A stretch of 5,037 nt of DNA, from the IMG/VR virus record IMGVR_UViG_2667527898_000023, one strand, 5' to 3'. Source of the stretch: a virus. Lineage: Duplodnaviria > Heunggongvirae > Uroviricota > Caudoviricetes. The notes below the pieces were generated by a model. That model was given only the letters and a program-made list of their open reading frames with translations. It made no database searches and was not told the DNA's origin. Numbering within the stretch: position 1 is the stretch's first letter; each line of letters opens with the position of its first letter. The position numbers and the translations under genes were made by a program. Shown in pieces: positions 63-5,037 of this stretch.

Positions 63-218
63 TTACTCCTCAGGTTCGTAAGCTGTGAAGACAGCGACCT
101 CCGTCTGGCCGGTTCGGATTCGTACCTCGCAGAGGTCTTTCCTCGTTACCAGTGCCGTCACTATGACGGTTAAACAGATGACGATCAGGGCGATTAACAT
201 CGCCTTTTGCTGCTTCAT
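63..218 (-). CDS. hok: Hok/Gef-family small membrane toxin (51 aa)
   Basis: Translation MKQQKAMLIALIVICLTVIVTALVTRKDLCEVRIRTGQTEVAVFTAYEPEE has the Hok/Gef signature (hydrophobic helix, LTRK.LCE motif, TGQTEVAVF); from memory it is near-identical to E. coli HokD/RelF. ATG at 216-218 (reverse strand). Confidence 0.8.
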   Translation of the reverse strand: MKQQKAMLIALIVICLTVIVTALVTRKDLCEVRIRTGQTEVAVFTAYEPEE

Positions 219-275
219 AGCCTGCTTCTCCTTGCCTTTCGGCACGTAAGAGGCTAACCTACATGTGTTCAGCAT
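63..275 (-). CDS. mok: Mok-like in-frame upstream extension of hok (70 aa reading frame)
   Basis: ORF begins MLNTCR...KEKQAM and continues in frame into Hok; this matches my recollection of chromosomal Mok proteins (MLNTCR... start, Hok fully contained). Function is translational coupling, not an independent protein. Confidence 0.5.
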   Translation of the reverse strand: MLNTCRLASYVPKGKEKQAMKQQKAMLIALIVICLTVIVTALVTRKDLCEVRIRTGQTEVAVFTAYEPEE

Positions 276-455
276 GGATTGAGCCTCAGATTAATGTTAA
301 GCGTCTTGCAGGACGCGTAATGTTAACTGGGGCTTTTCTCTATCTGCCTTTTGGTGTTCATGCCTGAGGCAGATAGCCTCAAGCACCCGCAGCAATTCTA
401 CTTAACTCACGTCACCTCGCCAATATGAAATCAATCAGAAAGGTGATCCATAAAA
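219..455 (-). promoter_or_regulatory. hok mRNA 5' leader region; candidate site of antisense Sok-like RNA on + strand
   Basis: 237-bp non-coding stretch upstream of hok on the coding strand, with a hairpin GCGTC-TTGCAG-GACGC (301-316) flanked by direct TAATGTTAA repeats, and a 9-bp inverted repeat CTATCTGCC/GGCAGATAG (348-376). A weak + strand promoter-like pair TTGCCT(232-237)-17-TAACCT(255-260) could drive an antisense RNA. Structure seen; function inferred from hok/sok paradigm. Confidence 0.3.
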
Positions 456-1142
456 TCACTCCTTCTCTTCTTTTCCGTAGTGGAGTTGGCCAATTTTGAT
501 AAGAGGGCGTCCCTGAGATTTGCGGTGTAGATTGGTATCGCGCAGAGAATACACACAGCCACAATATTCCTGCTGATAGAATTTTTCGCGCTTGCTGATT
601 TCAATCATACGGGACGAGCCGCCCTGCTTGCGCCAGTTATAATCCCAGTATACCATACCCGGATAATGCGCAACAGCTCGCCGCCCACACTCGTTAACCT
701 GCTGCATATTTTTCCAGCGCGAAATGCCCAGTGAACTGCTGATCACACTGAAACCATTTTCAGCAGCGTACAACGCTGTCCGCTCAAAACGCATGTCAAA
801 ACACATGGTACAACGGATCCCCCTCTCAGGCTCCCATTCCATTCCTTTGGCACGTTCAAACCAGTTGTCGGTGTCGTAATCAGCATCGATAAACGGCACG
901 CCGTGTTGTTCAGCAAAGCGAATATTTTCATCCTTACGAATTAAATACTCTTTCTGAGGATGAATGTTCGGGTTGTAGAAAAAGATGGTGTAGTCGATTC
1001 CCGAGGCCTGAAGCGCCTCCATCACTTCACCGGAACATGGAGCACAGCAAGAGTGCAGTAGTAGTTTGTTTGCCCCGTTTGGGAGCTCCAATTTAGGCCG
1101 TTTGAAATCAGCAATAGTCATAAATATTTTTATTGGGGTCAT
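456..1142 (-). CDS. DUF208/QueH-like protein (putative epoxyqueuosine reductase-family Fe-S enzyme), 228 aa
   Basis: Translation contains [14 protein letters not shown] near the N-terminus plus later cysteine pairs ([18 protein letters not shown]), matching my recollection of the QueH (DUF208) cysteine signature. No Shine-Dalgarno before ATG 1142 or the alternative ATG 1121, so the start is uncertain. Confidence 0.55.
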
Positions 1143-1295: not shown

Positions 1296-1721
1296 CTAGT
1301 AACGTCTAAAATACCTAACATTTCCTTGATAAAATGCCAGTACACTCTGCATAGCTTCGCTCTTCCGGCACTCGCGACAGATTATATTCAGACGCCTGTC
1401 GTAGCGGCGTATTTCGCCGTCTGGTAACGACCAGATAAGGTCCGGATCAACCACTGCAGGTTTCTTCACCTTTGCCCTTGAGAGTTTTTTGCGGGCATTT
1501 TGCCAGTCCTTACGCGCCTGTTCAGACGGGAATAATCCGCAGCCGGAGTTGTATACATCGCCACTGGCTACCAGTTCTCTGGCAAGAACGCTCATCAGAT
1601 ATCTTGTTGCCCCAGTTTTAGCTTCCAGTTGTCGTAACGTCTCGCGCCCACTCTGGCGTACGAGTTCAACAACCTGCCCTTTAATTTTTTCCCGCTCTTC
1701 TTGTGTAAAAACTTTTGCCAC
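1296..1721 (-). CDS. Hypothetical prophage protein, possible N-terminal helix-turn-helix (141 aa)
   Basis: ORF with GTG start at 1719-1721 preceded by strong SD (caGGAGGgcttGTG on the reverse strand). Segment GRETLRQLEAKTGATRYLMSVLAREL looks HTH-like. Family not recognised. Confidence 0.5.
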   Translation of the reverse strand: MAKVFTQEEREKIKGQVVELVRQSGRETLRQLEAKTGATRYLMSVLARELVASGDVYNSGCGLFPSEQARKDWQNARKKLSRAKVKKPAVVDPDLIWSLPDGEIRRYDRRLNIICRECRKSEAMQSVLAFYQGNVRYFRRY

Positions 1722-1761: not shown

Positions 1762-2844
1762 TTACCCCCTGAAGCCCGGCGGAATTTCGTTATCCGGTTC
1801 AGAAATATGATTCACACAACGCTGGTTGTTCGTGCCGCTTACCGGGAGCAACCAGGGGTTCTCAAAATTCCGGTCCGGTCCAAAAAACGTCGTCGCTCGC
1901 TGAACAAATTCCGTTCCCGTTTTCCCGGTAGCCGCCAAGTATCTTGCGTAACGCCTCACGCCATCCAGCATGGCTTCTGGTGGCACCCCCTCGCGTAATC
2001 TGGCCTTCCAGGCACTGAAAGCGGATTTCTTCGGGTTTGCTCCGGCACGCAACGGGTACTCCCGCCAGACCTGTTCGAACACATCCGGATAATCCACTCG
2101 TCCCACAGACTGCCCGGTGTTTTCCGGGACTACCCGATCGGCTTCCCGCTGAATGGCGGAATCGGCTTCGGGCTGCTGCAGTTGGTGTGATTGCTCCGGC
2201 CTTGCGGTCATCACCTGCTGCACAGCGCCCGAATCGGCTTTCAGCGCATACGCTGAATCGGCTTCCGGTGTCGTGCCTGCTGGCTGACCAAGATTGACGG
2301 TCTGAACATCCCCTGCCTGGTTCGTGGCGTTTTTTACGCCATGGACCATAGTGTTTTGATCTTCTTGATCTGTATCTTTATCTGTATCTTTATCTGTATC
2401 TTTATCTGTCGTGACTCGTCGTGACATGTGCGTGACATTTCGTGACGCGCCGTGACAATCGCCATTTTGTTCCCGCTTTCTTTCCCTCTCTCGCTGCGCC
2501 CTCTTGCGCTCTGCAGGAGATTTTGCGGTTTGCGAAATATTGCCGTTGTCCTCTTTAAGCACCTGGCGTTTTTCCCATCCAGTGATTAAATCACCATCAA
2601 GTACCCGCCCCTGCATCGTCTGCAAAATTGAATCAATTACCTCTTCTGTCACGTCGAGCGCACTTGCCAAATCTTCTGTCGTGACATCAATGTGACCTCG
2701 CGTGACATTTCGTGACGCGCTCACCAGGAGGTGGATATACACTGCCATCACTGTTGCAATTGGCTGCCCTGACACTCTGGCAATTGTTCGCCACTTAGGG
2801 TCATTTGGCATGTCATGCCATAATCTGAGCCAGGCGTTAGCCAT
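1762..2844 (-). CDS. Phage replication initiation protein, YdaU/DUF1376-like, with repeat-rich central linker (360 aa)
   Basis: N-terminus MANAWLRLWHDMPNDPKWRTIARVSGQPIATVMAVYIHLL resembles the DUF1376 N-domain; C-terminus has FEQVWREYPLRAGANPKKSAFSAWKARL...FFGPDRNFENPW, a W/K-rich motif typical of phage replication-organiser proteins. Position (third gene after cro-like and YdaT-like) matches the Rac ydaS-ydaT-ydaU order. Start chosen at ATG 2842-2844 with SD GAGGTGA 2 nt upstream; an in-frame GTG at 2848-2850 is the ORF-track start. Confidence 0.65.
   Translation of the reverse strand: MANAWLRLWHDMPNDPKWRTIARVSGQPIATVMAVYIHLLVSASRNVTRGHIDVTTEDLASALDVTEEVIDSILQTMQGRVLDGDLITGWEKRQVLKEDNGNISQTAKSPAERKRAQRERERKREQNGDCHGASRNVTHMSRRVTTDKDTDKDTDKDTDQEDQNTMVHGVKNATNQAGDVQTVNLGQPAGTTPEADSAYALKADSGAVQQVMTARPEQSHQLQQPEADSAIQREADRVVPENTGQSVGRVDYPDVFEQVWREYPLRAGANPKKSAFSAWKARLREGVPPEAMLDGVRRYARYLAATGKTGTEFVQRATTFFGPDRNFENPWLLPVSGTNNQRCVNHISEPDNEIPPGFRG
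2137..2265. repeat. Four dispersed copies of ATCGGCTT(C/T) at 24/72/24-bp spacing
   Basis: Copies start at 2137, 2161, 2233 and 2257 on the + strand. On the coding strand they give protein repeats (PEADSA..KADSG..PEADSA..READR) in the initiator linker. Confidence 0.8.
2369..2409. repeat. Tandem 12-bp repeat TCTGTATCTTTA x3 plus partial copy (AT-rich)
   Basis: Perfect copies at 2369-2380, 2381-2392, 2393-2404, partial 2405-2409; encodes DKDT repeats on the reverse strand. Two GATC sites (2358-2361, 2367-2370) lie immediately upstream. Confidence 0.9.
2410..2456. repeat. Iteron-like array A: five direct CGTGAC hexamers phased about 10 bp apart
   Basis: CGTGAC at 2410, 2420, 2431, 2441, 2451 (spacings 10, 11, 10, 10 bp, about one helical turn). 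Directly abuts the AT-rich tandem repeat. Confidence 0.85.
2675..2720. repeat. Iteron-like array B: CGTGAC/TGTGAC hexamers at about 10-bp phasing; includes 21-bp perfect copy of array A
   Basis: Hexamers at 2680, 2691 (TGTGAC), 2701, 2711; 2700-2720 is identical to 2430-2450 (GCGTGACATTTCGTGACGCGC), and TCTGTCGTGAC recurs at 2405-2415 and 2675-2685, both exactly 270 bp apart. An inverted GTCACG copy sits at 2648-2653. Confidence 0.85.
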
Positions 2845-2914
2845 ACTCACCTCTTCTGATACCGAATCTTTTACTCACGAGTTGCCGGAAGCGATTCGAT
2901 ATGGCTATTATCAC

Positions 2915-3340
2915 TCAATGCACTGCCACAGCATTTCCTGCCGGGCCACCACGGTTCATCTGATTGAAACCGGCGATTGCCACTGCGACAAAATCATCAG
3001 CGTCTCTCACCAGTCGCTCCCGCGTCTCCACTAGTTCCCGAAAATAGGCTGAGCTATGACTGCGCATTCGGGCCACCAGCAGAGGTGGCATTGCTTTTTC
3101 GATAGCTGGTAACAACGCCTGAATTTTTTCAACTGCATCAGGGGTGTCTTTCTCTATCCAGCGGAAAATTTTCTGGGTATTGCGAGCCAGGGCTTCCGGA
3201 TGGCTGTCGTCGTACAGTTCAGGAAACGTCATACCCAACTCAAAATAAGCCTGGGTTATTCCAGCTGCCGGAACTTTTTCGCCATCAGGACGCGCCCAGG
3301 CATTCATCGCCATGCGGATGTGTTCATGCTTGATTTTCAT
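2915..3340 (-). CDS. YdaT-like protein (CII-like candidate of Rac-type prophages), 141 aa
   Basis: Starts MKIKHEH, which I recall as the YdaT N-terminus; second gene of the cro-side operon. ATG 3338-3340 has a G-rich SD (AAGGGGGG) upstream and overlaps the end of the cro-like gene by 17 nt. The ORF-track start at 3412 lies inside the cro-like gene and is less likely. Confidence 0.55.
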   Translation of the reverse strand: MKIKHEHIRMAMNAWARPDGEKVPAAGITQAYFELGMTFPELYDDSHPEALARNTQKIFRWIEKDTPDAVEKIQALLPAIEKAMPPLLVARMRSHSSAYFRELVETRERLVRDADDFVAVAIAGFNQMNRGGPAGNAVAVH

Positions 3341-3566
3341 GAATCCCCCCTTGGTTAGAAGGCGGATTATGATCAGAACCGGGAATGACAACCGTCGGTA
3401 TGTGTAACTCATATTTGAGCGCCCCGGCAGTGACTGCCTGAATTAGCAACGCCCATTTCCACGGAACCTCTTCCCCCCACATGCTGACTGTGGTTTTTGA
3501 CGTTCCTAGAGCTGCGGCTGTTTTAACAACTCCGCCAAAATAGCCTAATACTTCTGATTTTTTCAT
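3324..3566 (-). CDS. Cro-like / YdaS-like small HTH regulator (80 aa)
   Basis: First gene of the leftward operon, divergent from the CI-like repressor; contains HTH-like VVKTAAALGTSKTTVSMW. Start at ATG 3564-3566 with SD GGAG 6 nt upstream; the longer ORF-track start (3614) lacks an SD. Confidence 0.65.
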   Translation of the reverse strand: MKKSEVLGYFGGVVKTAAALGTSKTTVSMWGEEVPWKWALLIQAVTAGALKYELHIPTVVIPGSDHNPPSNQGGIHENQA

Positions 3567-3657
3567 GAGTCGCTCCATAAAACTGAACGCCAAAAGTTTA
3601 ATAATCAAAACCAAAGAAAGTCAAGAAACAAAACCATCTGTGTTTTAAAATCAAAAC
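3567..3657. promoter_or_regulatory. Divergent switch region (PR-like and PRM-like promoters, repeated candidate operator motifs)
   Basis: 91-bp AT-rich intergenic region between divergent cro-like and cI-like genes. Three direct CAAAAC(C/A) motifs at 3606, 3629, 3652 (23-bp spacing). Reverse-strand promoter TTGACT (3623..3618) -18- TAAACT (3599..3594). Forward-strand -10-like TAAAAT (3646-3651) placed so transcription would start at or near the cI ATG. Confidence 0.5.
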
Positions 3658-4296
3658 ATGAGCAAGCAAACAATATCTGAACGCATAACCCAACGTATGC
3701 ATGCGCTAAACCTGAAAGGCAAAGACCTTGTCAATGCCACTGGCGCATCAAAAGGCTCCGTAAGTCAATGGATGAACGGTGGAGGAGCGCCGTCCTCGCG
3801 TTACATAAGTTCACTGGCAAAAATATTGAAAGTAAACGAAAATTGGCTTCTTAATGGAGGAGAGTTAAATACAGGTGATTCGCTTGATCTATCTTTACCG
3901 CCGATAAAAACGGTTCCGCTACTATCACTTCAGCAGGCAGCAAGCTGGAGTGATTATATGAAAAATTCCTCAATAACCTCTTGTGTGCAGCTTGTCGGAG
4001 AAATCCCGGCCAATACCTTTGCAGTTGTTCTAGAGAGTGACAGTATGTCAACATCTGGTGGGGGAGTTTCCATCCCAAATGGTTCAACAGTTTTTGTTGA
4101 TCCCGATCGAACCGTACAACCAGGAAATATTGTCCTTGCCTTACCCAAAGGGACCACAACACCTGTCATTCGTAAACTGGAGATAGAAGGGCCGGATATT
4201 CTTTTAGTCCCCACGAATCCTCGCTACCCTTCAATTATGCTGGATGATCTATCTTGCATATTGGGCGTATGCTTTAAAATTCAACAAGATATTTAA
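3658..4296 (+). CDS. CI-like phage repressor: N-terminal HTH (XRE-like) plus C-terminal S24 (LexA-like) peptidase domain, 212 aa
   Basis: N-terminal HTH-like region (GKDLVNATGASKGSVSQWMNG); C-terminal domain has the Ser/Lys dyad context ESDSM (Ser129) and VIRKL (Lys173), 44 residues apart, as in LexA and lambda CI. Divergent from the cro-like gene. No SD before the ATG. Confidence 0.85.
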   Translation: MSKQTISERITQRMHALNLKGKDLVNATGASKGSVSQWMNGGGAPSSRYISSLAKILKVNENWLLNGGELNTGDSLDLSLPPIKTVPLLSLQQAASWSDYMKNSSITSCVQLVGEIPANTFAVVLESDSMSTSGGGVSIPNGSTVFVDPDRTVQPGNIVLALPKGTTTPVIRKLEIEGPDILLVPTNPRYPSIMLDDLSCILGVCFKIQQDI

Positions 4297-4409: not shown

Positions 4410-4588
4410 TCATTCATTCCCTCTCCCCACCCCACAGAATGCAGGGCAATACTTCGAGTTACCAGGCAGTGGTCAGGGGTTAAGTAGCCAGCCCGAGGCG
4501 TAAGAACATGACGGCAGGGTTCAACTTTAATAACTATGCAGCAGGTTTTTGTTCCGCTACCCCGGCGTTAAGGGGAAATGAGGTCAGC

Positions 4589-4744
4589 ATGGATACTATC
4601 GATCTTGGCAACAGCGAATCTCTGGTATGTGGCGTGTTCCCCAACCAGGACGGTACGTTCACCGCGATGACGTATACCAAAAGCAAAACGTTTAAAACCG
4701 AAAATGGTGCCCGTCGCTGGCTGGAAAGAAACTCAGGTGAGTGA
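4589..4744 (+). CDS. Small prophage protein (51 aa), YdaF/DUF1391-like by recollection
   Basis: ATG 4589 preceded by SD GAGG (5-nt spacing); product MDTIDLGNSESLVCGVFPNQDGTFTAMTYTKSKTFKTENGARRWLERNSGE. The longer ORF-track start at 4508 has no SD. I recall a similar small protein next to racR in the Rac prophage, but the name is uncertain. Confidence 0.5.
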   Translation: MDTIDLGNSESLVCGVFPNQDGTFTAMTYTKSKTFKTENGARRWLERNSGE

Positions 4745-4745
4745 T

Positions 4746-4820
4746 ATGGATTTTGACACAATCATGGAAAAGGCTTACGAAGAATACTTCGAAGGCCTTG
4801 CCGAAGGCGAAGAAGCTCAC
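4746..4820 (+). pseudogene. Small prophage gene disrupted by IS1 after codon 25
   Basis: ATG 4746 with SD AGGTGA upstream, 1 nt after the previous stop. Native reading MDFDTIMEKAYEEYFEGLAEGEEAH ends where the IS1 inverted repeat begins (4821); the ORF-track ORF 4704..4901 is a chimera reading into IS1. Confidence 0.5.
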
Positions 4821-5037
4821 GGTAATGACTCCAACTTATTGATAGTGTTTTATGTTCAGATAATGCCCGATGACTTTGTCATGCAGCTCCACCGATTTTG
4901 AGAACGACAGCGACTTCCGTCCCAGCCGTGCCAGGTGCTGCCTCAGATTCAGGTTATGCCGCTCAATTCGCTGCGTATATCGCTTGCTGATTACGTGCAG
5001 CTTTCCCTTCAGGCGGGATTCATACAGCGGCCAGCCA
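4821..5037 (-). mobile_element. IS1 insertion sequence, partial (right end with terminal inverted repeat); continues beyond window
   Basis: 4821-4843 GGTAATGACTCCAACTTATTGAT is the IS1 right inverted repeat; the reverse complement of 4821-5037 matches the 3' terminal about 217 bp of IS1 as I remember it. Confidence 0.93.
4836..5037 (-). CDS. insB: IS1 transposase InsB, C-terminal part (partial, 5' end outside window)
   Basis: Reverse-strand translation ends ...[53 protein letters not shown] with stop TAA at 4836-4838 inside the inverted repeat, as in IS1. Confidence 0.9.

Follow-up and report, generated by a model that had tools for sequence, protein, structure and literature searches.

The window analysed here, a 5,037-nucleotide stretch of viral DNA (IMG/VR record IMGVR_UViG_2667527898_000023), carries genes of the immunity and replication region of a Rac/lambdoid-type E. 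coli prophage. One of them encodes a replication initiator, and within this gene lie two clusters of a short repeat: cluster A, in codons for the linker that follows the N-terminal DNA-binding domain, and cluster B, in codons for the DNA-binding domain itself. An earlier account made from the letters of this DNA alone (the sequence-only reading) had pointed to cluster B as a second iteron array, and had suggested either that the two arrays permit looping or handcuffing, or that they are simply an internal gene duplication. Comparison with relatives of the initiator indicates that cluster B is maintained as DNA, and points, more tentatively, to a role beside the origin.

Two arrays of one repeat in the initiator gene

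The core of the repeat is GTCACG on the coding strand (CGTGAC on the strand shown). CGTGAC occurs nine times in the window, where 1.9 copies are expected; none of 200 shuffles reached nine, and all nine copies are confined to positions 2410–2716 (Table 1). The five cores of cluster A are spaced 10/11/10/10 bp apart and encode DCHGASRNVTHMSRRVTT, part of the linker that follows the winged helix. About 230 bp upstream of cluster A in the direction of transcription is cluster B, in the same orientation and with a spacing of 11/10/10 bp. It overlies codons 44–58 (SASRNVTRGHIDVTT) of the winged-helix domain, which in the fold comprise the end of helix 31–47 and the loop preceding the helix-turn-helix. 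The fourth unit of cluster B, read from the sequence, is TGTGAC. Iteron origins have at least three direct repeats at helical-turn spacing, and both clusters show this, with five cores in A and four units in B.

The longest identity between the clusters is the 21-mer GCGTGACATTTCGTGACGCGC, present exactly at 2430–2450 and 2700–2720 and at no other site in the window even when up to three mismatches are allowed; no match was given by any of 200 shuffles. The 11-mer TCTGTCGTGAC is likewise found twice, at 2405–2415 and 2675–2685, with the same offset of 270. Since 270 is a multiple of three, the shared 21-mer yields the ASRNVT peptide twice in the window, and the initiator carries ASRNVT...VTT at residues 45–58 and again at 135–148. 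Thus the two duplicates, the duplicated protein segment and the oppositely oriented CGTGAC at 2648–2653 are all present as the sequence-only reading had described them. Its further claim, that B is a second array with a phasing of about 10 bp, holds for the phasing; what repeats is three exact cores and one degenerate core, and B is thus an incomplete copy of A. Between the two 46-bp blocks, the central 14 bp mismatch in register.

Table 1. Positions of the elements within the initiator gene and of the other features of the window
Feature	Position	Strand	Description
Replication initiator gene	1762–2850	minus	362 residues
Palindrome, 13-bp arms	2318–2348		85% complementary, 5-nt loop; far side of AT tract from iterons
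AT-rich, strand-asymmetric tract	2340–2409		candidate DNA-unwinding element
Cluster A (putative primary origin array)	2405–2460	minus	five cores, starting at 2410, 2420, 2431, 2441 and 2451
Spacer between arrays	2461–2674	minus	codes for rest of winged helix and basic linker; sole core is the inverted one
Inverted core	2648–2653	plus	27 bp from cluster B; codons D66-V67-T68
Cluster B	2675–2720	minus	cores 2680–2685, 2701–2706 and 2711–2716; one-mismatch core 2691–2696
hok with sok RNA	63–388		Hok family open reading frame 63–275, minus strand; sok RNA 213–388, Rfam 120 bits
QueH (epoxyqueuosine reductase)	456–1142		
DUF977/Ren-like gene	1296–1721		
YdaT/cII-like gene	2915–3340		
P22-Cro-like gene	3324–3566		
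S24 cI-type repressor	3658–4296	plus	
DUF1391 gene	4508–4744	plus	
Insertion-sequence end	about 4820–5037		

Constraint on synonymous sites in cluster B

We fetched 58 genomic loci encoding relatives of the N-terminal domain, from gamma-, beta- and alpha-proteobacteria, Acidobacteria and one planctomycete. Synonymous sites were compared in 18 loci of the GTCACG type, with about 45–70% protein identity. In these loci the cores of cluster B favour particular codons far more strongly than the rest of the same domains. Valine is GTC at 36 of 36 core positions and at 18 of 113 elsewhere, threonine is ACG at 36 of 36 against 13 of 66, glycine is GGT at 18 of 18 against 20 of 100, and serine is TCA at 17 of 18 against 23 of 142, with Fisher p-values between 1e-4 and 1e-21. 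A scan of third-position entropy over codons 7–100 gave a single extended trough, at codons 45–57, in which entropy falls to zero at V49, T50, G52, H53, D55, V56 and T57 and stays at 1.5–1.7 bits at R51 and V54, situated between cores. Outside the trough, entropy is zero at V67, in the inverted core, and low (0.32 bits) at D13. The valine–threonine pairs provide an internal control: V67 is GTG in 15 of 15 GTCACG-type loci and V49 and V56 are always GTC, the pair at 67/68 always being GTG-ACN and those at 49/50 and 56/57 always GTC-ACG.

The same conclusion is reached with a different core. In 11 loci of the GAACGC type, the codons TCG AAC GCA ACC GAA CGC GGN CGA ACG are invariant except at N, an independent replicate of the result. 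The reading frames of the repeat point in the same direction: GTCACG occurs in frames 2, 0 and 0 in cluster B and in frames 1, 2, 0, 2 and 0 in cluster A, so that in B the hexamer is read as A-S-R, V-T and G-H, and each of the three frames is used in A. As synonymous sites are fixed in two core lineages, amino-acid constraint is unable to explain cluster B. Thus the refuting case named in the sequence-only reading, that repeat conservation is fully due to the amino acids, is contradicted by the fixed synonymous sites and the three frames. Judged on codon choice and frame, cluster B is a DNA element and not a peptide repeat, and it is very likely to be a selected array of DNA sites read by the same factor as A.

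The inverted core occurs at the same position in about half of the GTCACG-type loci, and the half-site at 2648–2653 is, by its fixed V67 codon, conserved at the DNA level as well. It could be a site for a dimer. No inverted copy is found at the corresponding position in the GAACGC-type relatives.

Two other sources of constraint on the DNA were considered. Open reading frames lie antisense to cluster B on the plus strand (2504–2695 and 2702–3034); these were rejected as the cause because the fixed positions track the 10-bp pattern of the cores and the intervening bases are unconstrained. A hairpin in the RNA, joining a core of cluster B to the inverted core, would have a stem of only 6–7 bp, and the missing inverted copy in the GAACGC-type relatives counts against it as well.

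Co-variation of the two arrays across relatives

For each locus the commonest 6-mer was taken de novo, and a core could be called in 44 loci. It was GTCACG in 21 loci, GAACGC in 17, GTAACG in five and GTGACG in one. With positions counted from a conserved DPKW codon, the same core was found at both the B position (+86 to +121) and the A position (+300 to +460) in 43 of the 44, and elsewhere in the locus (mostly about 6 kb) there are typically zero to two copies on that strand, occasionally up to six. The sequence-only reading had called for a comparison of related prophages to see whether one or both clusters are conserved. Both are kept in nearly all of these loci, and A alone is kept in a few relatives. 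Its description of a second cluster of the same repeat is also borne out: the cores of B are fixed at synonymous sites in two lineages, and B co-varies with A in 43 loci. The units of cluster B stay at fixed positions (+86, +96, +106 and +117) even between genera whose other synonymous sites have reached saturation.

Relatives at least 56% identical to the initiator carry GTCACG, and the more distant ones, of about 42–66% identity, carry GAACGC, GTAACG or GTGACG. Thus, as expected for iterons, the repeat is lineage-specific with respect to the DNA-binding domain of the initiator, each core being present in both arrays. The peptides track the DNA: SRNVTRGH in B accompanies CHxxSRNVT in A, SNATERGRTQ accompanies QPNATERxRTP, and in a Sphingomonas locus ETTGNAGVTQG is found at both array positions. 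Between lineages that differ in their core, loop 44–58 is the most divergent segment of an otherwise highly conserved domain.

For the window and 21 of the fetched loci (22 in all), B and A are linked by the longest direct repeat that acts over a long range within the gene, and none of 200 codon shuffles reached its length. The offset between the two copies of this longest shared word is often not a multiple of three (292, 250, 238, 259, 221, 212, 215 and 260). The sharing of long words by A and B is general. The exact 21-mer of the window is specific to the E. coli/Shigella lineage, and phage Evi already has a substitution in it. Unit number shifts in both arrays by steps of 21 nt (seven residues), with seven extra residues in B in some E. 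coli relatives and seven extra in A in the window; 21 nt is the smallest change that preserves both the reading frame and a 10.5-bp register. Within the arrays of relatives, single steps average 10.2 bp, and 148 of the 149 measure 10 or 11 bp.

Relatives without cluster B and variant arrays

In a locus from Edaphobacter (L033), A consists of seven CGAACG units and B is absent; the loop is equal in length to that of relatives bearing B. A Noviherbaspirillum locus (L035, gene from 3001) combines an array A of three TGTCAC units with an unrelated loop and lacks cluster B, and a further locus, L053, similarly has A without B. About eight other fetched loci have weak arrays, no arrays or another kind of repeat. 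The retention of A without B in L033, L035 and L053 indicates that B is accessory, and not indispensable for the origin. The sequence-only reading had held that relatives lacking B with unchanged replication would count against it; natural relatives with A and no B do exist, which goes part of the way towards that refutation. The equal loop length in B-less and nearest B-bearing relatives indicates that B arose by substitution over existing codons and not by insertion. Together with the three frames and the offsets that are not multiples of three, this leads us to reject the suggestion that the repeat is simply an internal gene duplication.

The basic region that follows the wing in L035 resembles that of GTCACG-type proteins. 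As L035 combines GTCAC-type repeats with an unrelated loop, the determinant of specificity may lie in the basic region and not in the loop.

Some relatives have unusual arrays or domain structures. In loci from Serratia and Pantoea (L041 and L055) the N-terminal domain is fused to an insert with a GIY-YIG-like motif (YVYYV...VGIS.NPWAR), at about +280 to +420 from the DPKW codon; palindromic ACTACGTAGTA-type words lie over the Y-V-Y codons, and there is no cluster B. In an Erwinia locus (L022) both clusters carry CGTCACGTCACGTCACG, repeated every 5 bp. In loci from Pantoea and Enterobacter (L019 and L021) there is a 10-bp palindrome, GTAACGTTAC, with GTAACG cores 21 bp apart in B and 10–29 bp apart in A. 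The variant arrays of L022, L019 and L021 suggest that the basic half-site is a pentamer.

AT-rich tract and palindrome beside cluster A

Cluster A is adjoined by an AT-rich tract, part of which is a 12-bp tandem repeat, TCTTTATCTGTA, present 3.9 times at 2363–2409 and encoding (DKDT)n. The GC content drops to 27.5% at 2360–2399, and is 47–55% around cluster B. In nearly all relatives an equivalent A-rich tract (AGATAAAGAT...) directly adjoins cluster A. The unwinding element that accompanies the repeats in an iteron origin thus has a candidate at cluster A and none at cluster B; having no AT-rich tract, B alone is not an origin. By this arrangement, cluster A and the adjoining AT-rich tract would form the primary origin, in the layout of lambda and SPP1. 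The palindrome carries a T-rich tail, and the order of elements is iterons, AT tract, palindrome.

The copy number of the TCTTTATCTGTA (DKDT) unit varies among near-identical prophages (loci L063–L142), in which the initiator gene measures 1077, 1083, 1089 or 1101 nt. The window has one unit more than phages Tritos and Evi and the Shigella copy. This change in copy number was all that a comparison of 80 near-identical viral contigs brought out, their variable sites being too few for regions to be compared.

The initiator protein

The initiator consists of an N-terminal winged helix (about residues 3–96), a basic linker, an acidic D-K/D-T linker and a C-terminal domain. Its best match among PHROGs is 3729, ‘replication initiation protein’, and the family has 1169 database hits. 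No Pfam family matched at E ≤ 0.01, and NCBIfam likewise gave nothing above threshold. PF09681, the N-terminal domain of SPP1 G38P-type replisome organizers, reached 12.7 bits against a cut-off of 23.3 (E = 0.13), below its gathering threshold. The protein does not belong to the lambda O N-terminal family either, and ‘DNA replication protein O’, as found in some phage records, is a functional label only.

The C-terminal domain, with a putative role in recruiting helicase, has been exchanged among relatives, many of which have a DnaT-like version (PF17948); here it matches a DnaD-like helicase-loader PHROG and ends in a DnaT-like tail. This tail, ...NHISEPDNEIPPGFRG (about 24 C-terminal residues, window 1762–1830), is common to relatives with otherwise different C-terminal domains, and gives a weak match (E = 8e-4, short of the model cut-off) to the DnaT model over its final 24 positions. 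The tail may be a short motif at which host primosome or helicase proteins dock.

Genetic context

Most genes of the window are on the minus strand, the exceptions being the repressor gene and one small gene beyond it. The hok/sok pair is a toxin–antisense module. The QueH gene lies in the early region of the prophage, with hok on one side and the replication genes on the other, and has the look of cargo. Similarity to other E. coli genomes ends at 4818–4820, and the remainder is multi-copy sequence (a median of 13 places per genome, a figure for the whole query), which resembles the end of an IS1 element. The insertion-sequence end breaks an open reading frame downstream of the DUF1391 gene.

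The same module, 96–98% identical, is present in the isolated phages Tritos, Evi and vB_EcoS-689R5, where its neighbours are dicB, DicF and the exonuclease VIII gene. No origin is annotated at the module in these three phages.

Possible role of cluster B

Four points can be taken as established: the two arrays exist, cluster B is under selection at the DNA level, the arrays co-vary, and B has no AT-rich tract where A has one. The explanation that serves best as a whole, and that we hold with about as much doubt as belief, is that B is an accessory array of initiator sites which acts with the primary origin by looping or wrapping. The winged-helix domain of the initiator would bind both arrays, the units of B being written over the codons of a tolerant loop of that same domain. 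Initiator bound at B would associate with initiator bound at A, looping or wrapping the roughly 230-bp spacer into one larger nucleoprotein complex. Such a complex could strengthen or stabilise occupancy of the origin and so help to melt the AT tract beside A, after which the C-terminal domain would recruit the host helicase machinery. For the stimulatory looping mechanism specifically, our confidence is a little lower, and we put it forward as tentative.

That the two-array module occurs in viable phages counts in favour of this explanation. A hint toward looping comes from the gap between the last core of B and the first core of A: it takes 19 distinct lengths, and 16 of these are no more than 2 bp away from a multiple of 10 (p = 0.002, in a test uncorrected for shared ancestry and with the period scanned, not preset). 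Because the gap lengths take all residues modulo three, this quantisation is not a coding artefact, and we regard it as suggestive, not decisive. Several considerations weigh on the other side. The gain or loss of units at the edge of array A would also produce the quantisation, and the true helical phase cannot be fixed over about 200 bp. Some relatives have a good cluster A and no B; the existence of the origin does not depend on B. Since a run of four to six adjoining iterons is enough for origins of the lambda type (PMC7466680), the need for a distant array is not obvious. No binding, replication or looping experiment was found in the literature searched. In addition, the same anatomy fits a negative role equally well.

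A negative role could take two forms. Initiator that had accumulated on B might block RNA polymerase, shutting down the synthesis of initiator as well as the passage of transcription across the origin on which lambdoid origins depend; or B might pair with A, on the same or on a sister molecule, and switch the origin off by handcuffing. Cluster B has what is expected of control iterons, namely origin-type sites in a second array, apart from the minimal origin and without an unwinding element, and the control iterons of P1 (incA) and F (incC) share this anatomy. It lies upstream of A within the transcribed initiator gene, with an extra inverted core close by; in iteron plasmids, autorepression by Rep dimers acts through inverted sites. 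The B-less relatives that keep A also fit a regulator rather than a core part. However, these are integrating phages of the Rac/lambdoid type and not low-copy plasmids in need of copy-number control, B lies in mid-gene and not at a promoter, and nothing in the present data separates a negative from a positive effect. On balance we consider negative control unlikely, and yet the main competitor. The idea of B as an operator at an internal promoter was dropped, since a scan for promoters and terminators over 2200–3700 gave nothing convincing near B; the sole 9/12 promoter match inside the arrays (in cluster A, 2432–2459) is built from the repeat itself.

The remaining explanations give cluster B no role as a separate site. 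It could be a functionless by-product, held similar to A by gene conversion or slippage or left over from an in-frame duplication, and tolerated in a surface loop. The in-frame offset of 270 with the same peptide twice in the window, the restriction of the exact 21-mer to the E. coli/Shigella lineage, the gain and loss of units in both arrays and the loss of B in some lineages would all fit. Yet B keeps its own fixed position and unit pattern across saturated divergence, and its cores are frozen while the bases between them vary, which indicates selection on the cores and not copying of whole tracts from A. The bases flanking the cores differ between A and B, the offset is often not a multiple of three, B-less and nearest B-bearing relatives show no inserted segment, and the shared tracts, at 8–21 nt, are short for homologous recombination. 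We give such a by-product only a small chance. An amino-acid constraint on a DNA-contacting loop, with A resembling B because the linker peptide mimics or interacts with the loop, would account for the invariance of R51 and G52 in aligned relatives, the R-G pair being kept also in those without B, and for the loop being the part of the domain that differs most between core lineages. It is very hard to reconcile with the fixed synonymous positions, with V-T written as GTC-ACG at 49/50 and 56/57 but GTG-ACN at 67/68, and with a hexamer that A and B share in different frames and hence as different peptides, and we consider its probability close to negligible. We also considered whether loop 44–58 itself reads the iteron, the site and the recognition codons then being the same DNA. 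A change in the repeat would then alter site and reader at once, which would be a built-in route to new origin specificities. The divergence of the loop between core lineages is compatible with this idea, but L035 has GTCAC-type repeats in A with an unrelated loop and no B, and the loop lies between helix 1 and the helix-turn-helix and is neither the recognition helix nor the wing. The likelihood of such a loop is slim.

Significance of the two-part layout

Origins within initiator genes have been known since lambda, and have been described as one array plus an AT tract. What is new is the two-part layout, in a widespread family of prophage initiators, with the second array overprinted on the codons of the initiator's own DNA-binding domain. 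About 40 nt would thus encode a protein loop and, at the same time, form a phased, putative protein-binding array, and the constraint on the DNA visibly dictates the peptide (SRNVTRGH in one lineage, SNATERGRT in another). The comparison of relatives argues strongly for a conserved dual-coding site array, a finding more general than an observation on a single window, and from it we infer the function. Every core of B could be removed by synonymous changes with the protein held constant, so that the roles of site and protein are separable. For annotation, the layout would allow the origin to be placed in these prophages and the specificity type to be read from the gene, and it implies that some ‘conserved motifs’ in these initiators are conserved because of the DNA. 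A practical use would be to predict replication incompatibility or cross-activation among co-resident prophages and satellites.

Comparison with known systems

Our search of the literature found no description of the origin of this family or of a two-array layout in an initiator gene; most subscription journals were outside the search, and an older account is possible. The lambda origin lies inside gene O, where direct repeats and then an AT-rich tract occupy the linker after the N-terminal DNA-binding domain, and Stx phages have six iterons, of which extra iterons 1' and 1'' can be needed (PMC7466680). The initiator gene described here is similar, with its putative origin at the linker after the DNA-binding domain and iterons followed by an AT tract. 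In lambda a palindrome also follows beyond the AT tract, giving the same order of iterons, AT tract and palindrome. Unlike lambda O, of which it is not a homologue (no Pfam hit), the initiator has units of about 10 bp with a 6-bp core, against the 19-bp iterons of lambda. Whereas lambda and Stx phages have one contiguous array, the second array here lies about 230 bp away in the codons of the DNA-binding domain.

In SPP1, oriL lies in gene 38, which encodes the replisome organizer G38P, and consists of repeats and an AT-rich element; G38P binds two discrete regions (PMC5737612). On inspection, gene 38 has short repeats and a 20%-GC tract at the linker after the N-terminal domain, in the same place as cluster A, and no second array was seen in its N-terminal-domain codons. 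The two systems are alike in having a winged-helix N-terminal domain of the ‘replisome organizer’ type, an origin embedded in the initiator gene and two separate initiator-binding regions, which are putative here. They differ in that our initiator is at most a remote relative of the G38P N-terminal-domain family (PF09681 sub-threshold), and in that the second G38P site of SPP1, oriR, is tens of kilobases away, outside the gene.

Two separate clusters of the same repeats on one replicon are also known from P4, where the initiator repeats form ori and crr, and crr is required in cis, with looping as its proposed mode of action. The P4 alpha protein is, however, an unrelated primase-helicase, and crr lies kilobases from ori, outside the initiator coding sequence. 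P1 (incA), F (incC) and R6K have control iterons, in which, as in cluster B, a second origin-type array lacks an unwinding element; this array is bound by the same initiator and pairs with the origin array. In these plasmids the arrays flank the rep gene and limit low-copy plasmids by handcuffing, whereas the array described here is inside the gene and belongs to integrating phages. To our knowledge, the distant second arrays of P4, P1, F and R6K all lie outside the initiator coding sequence.

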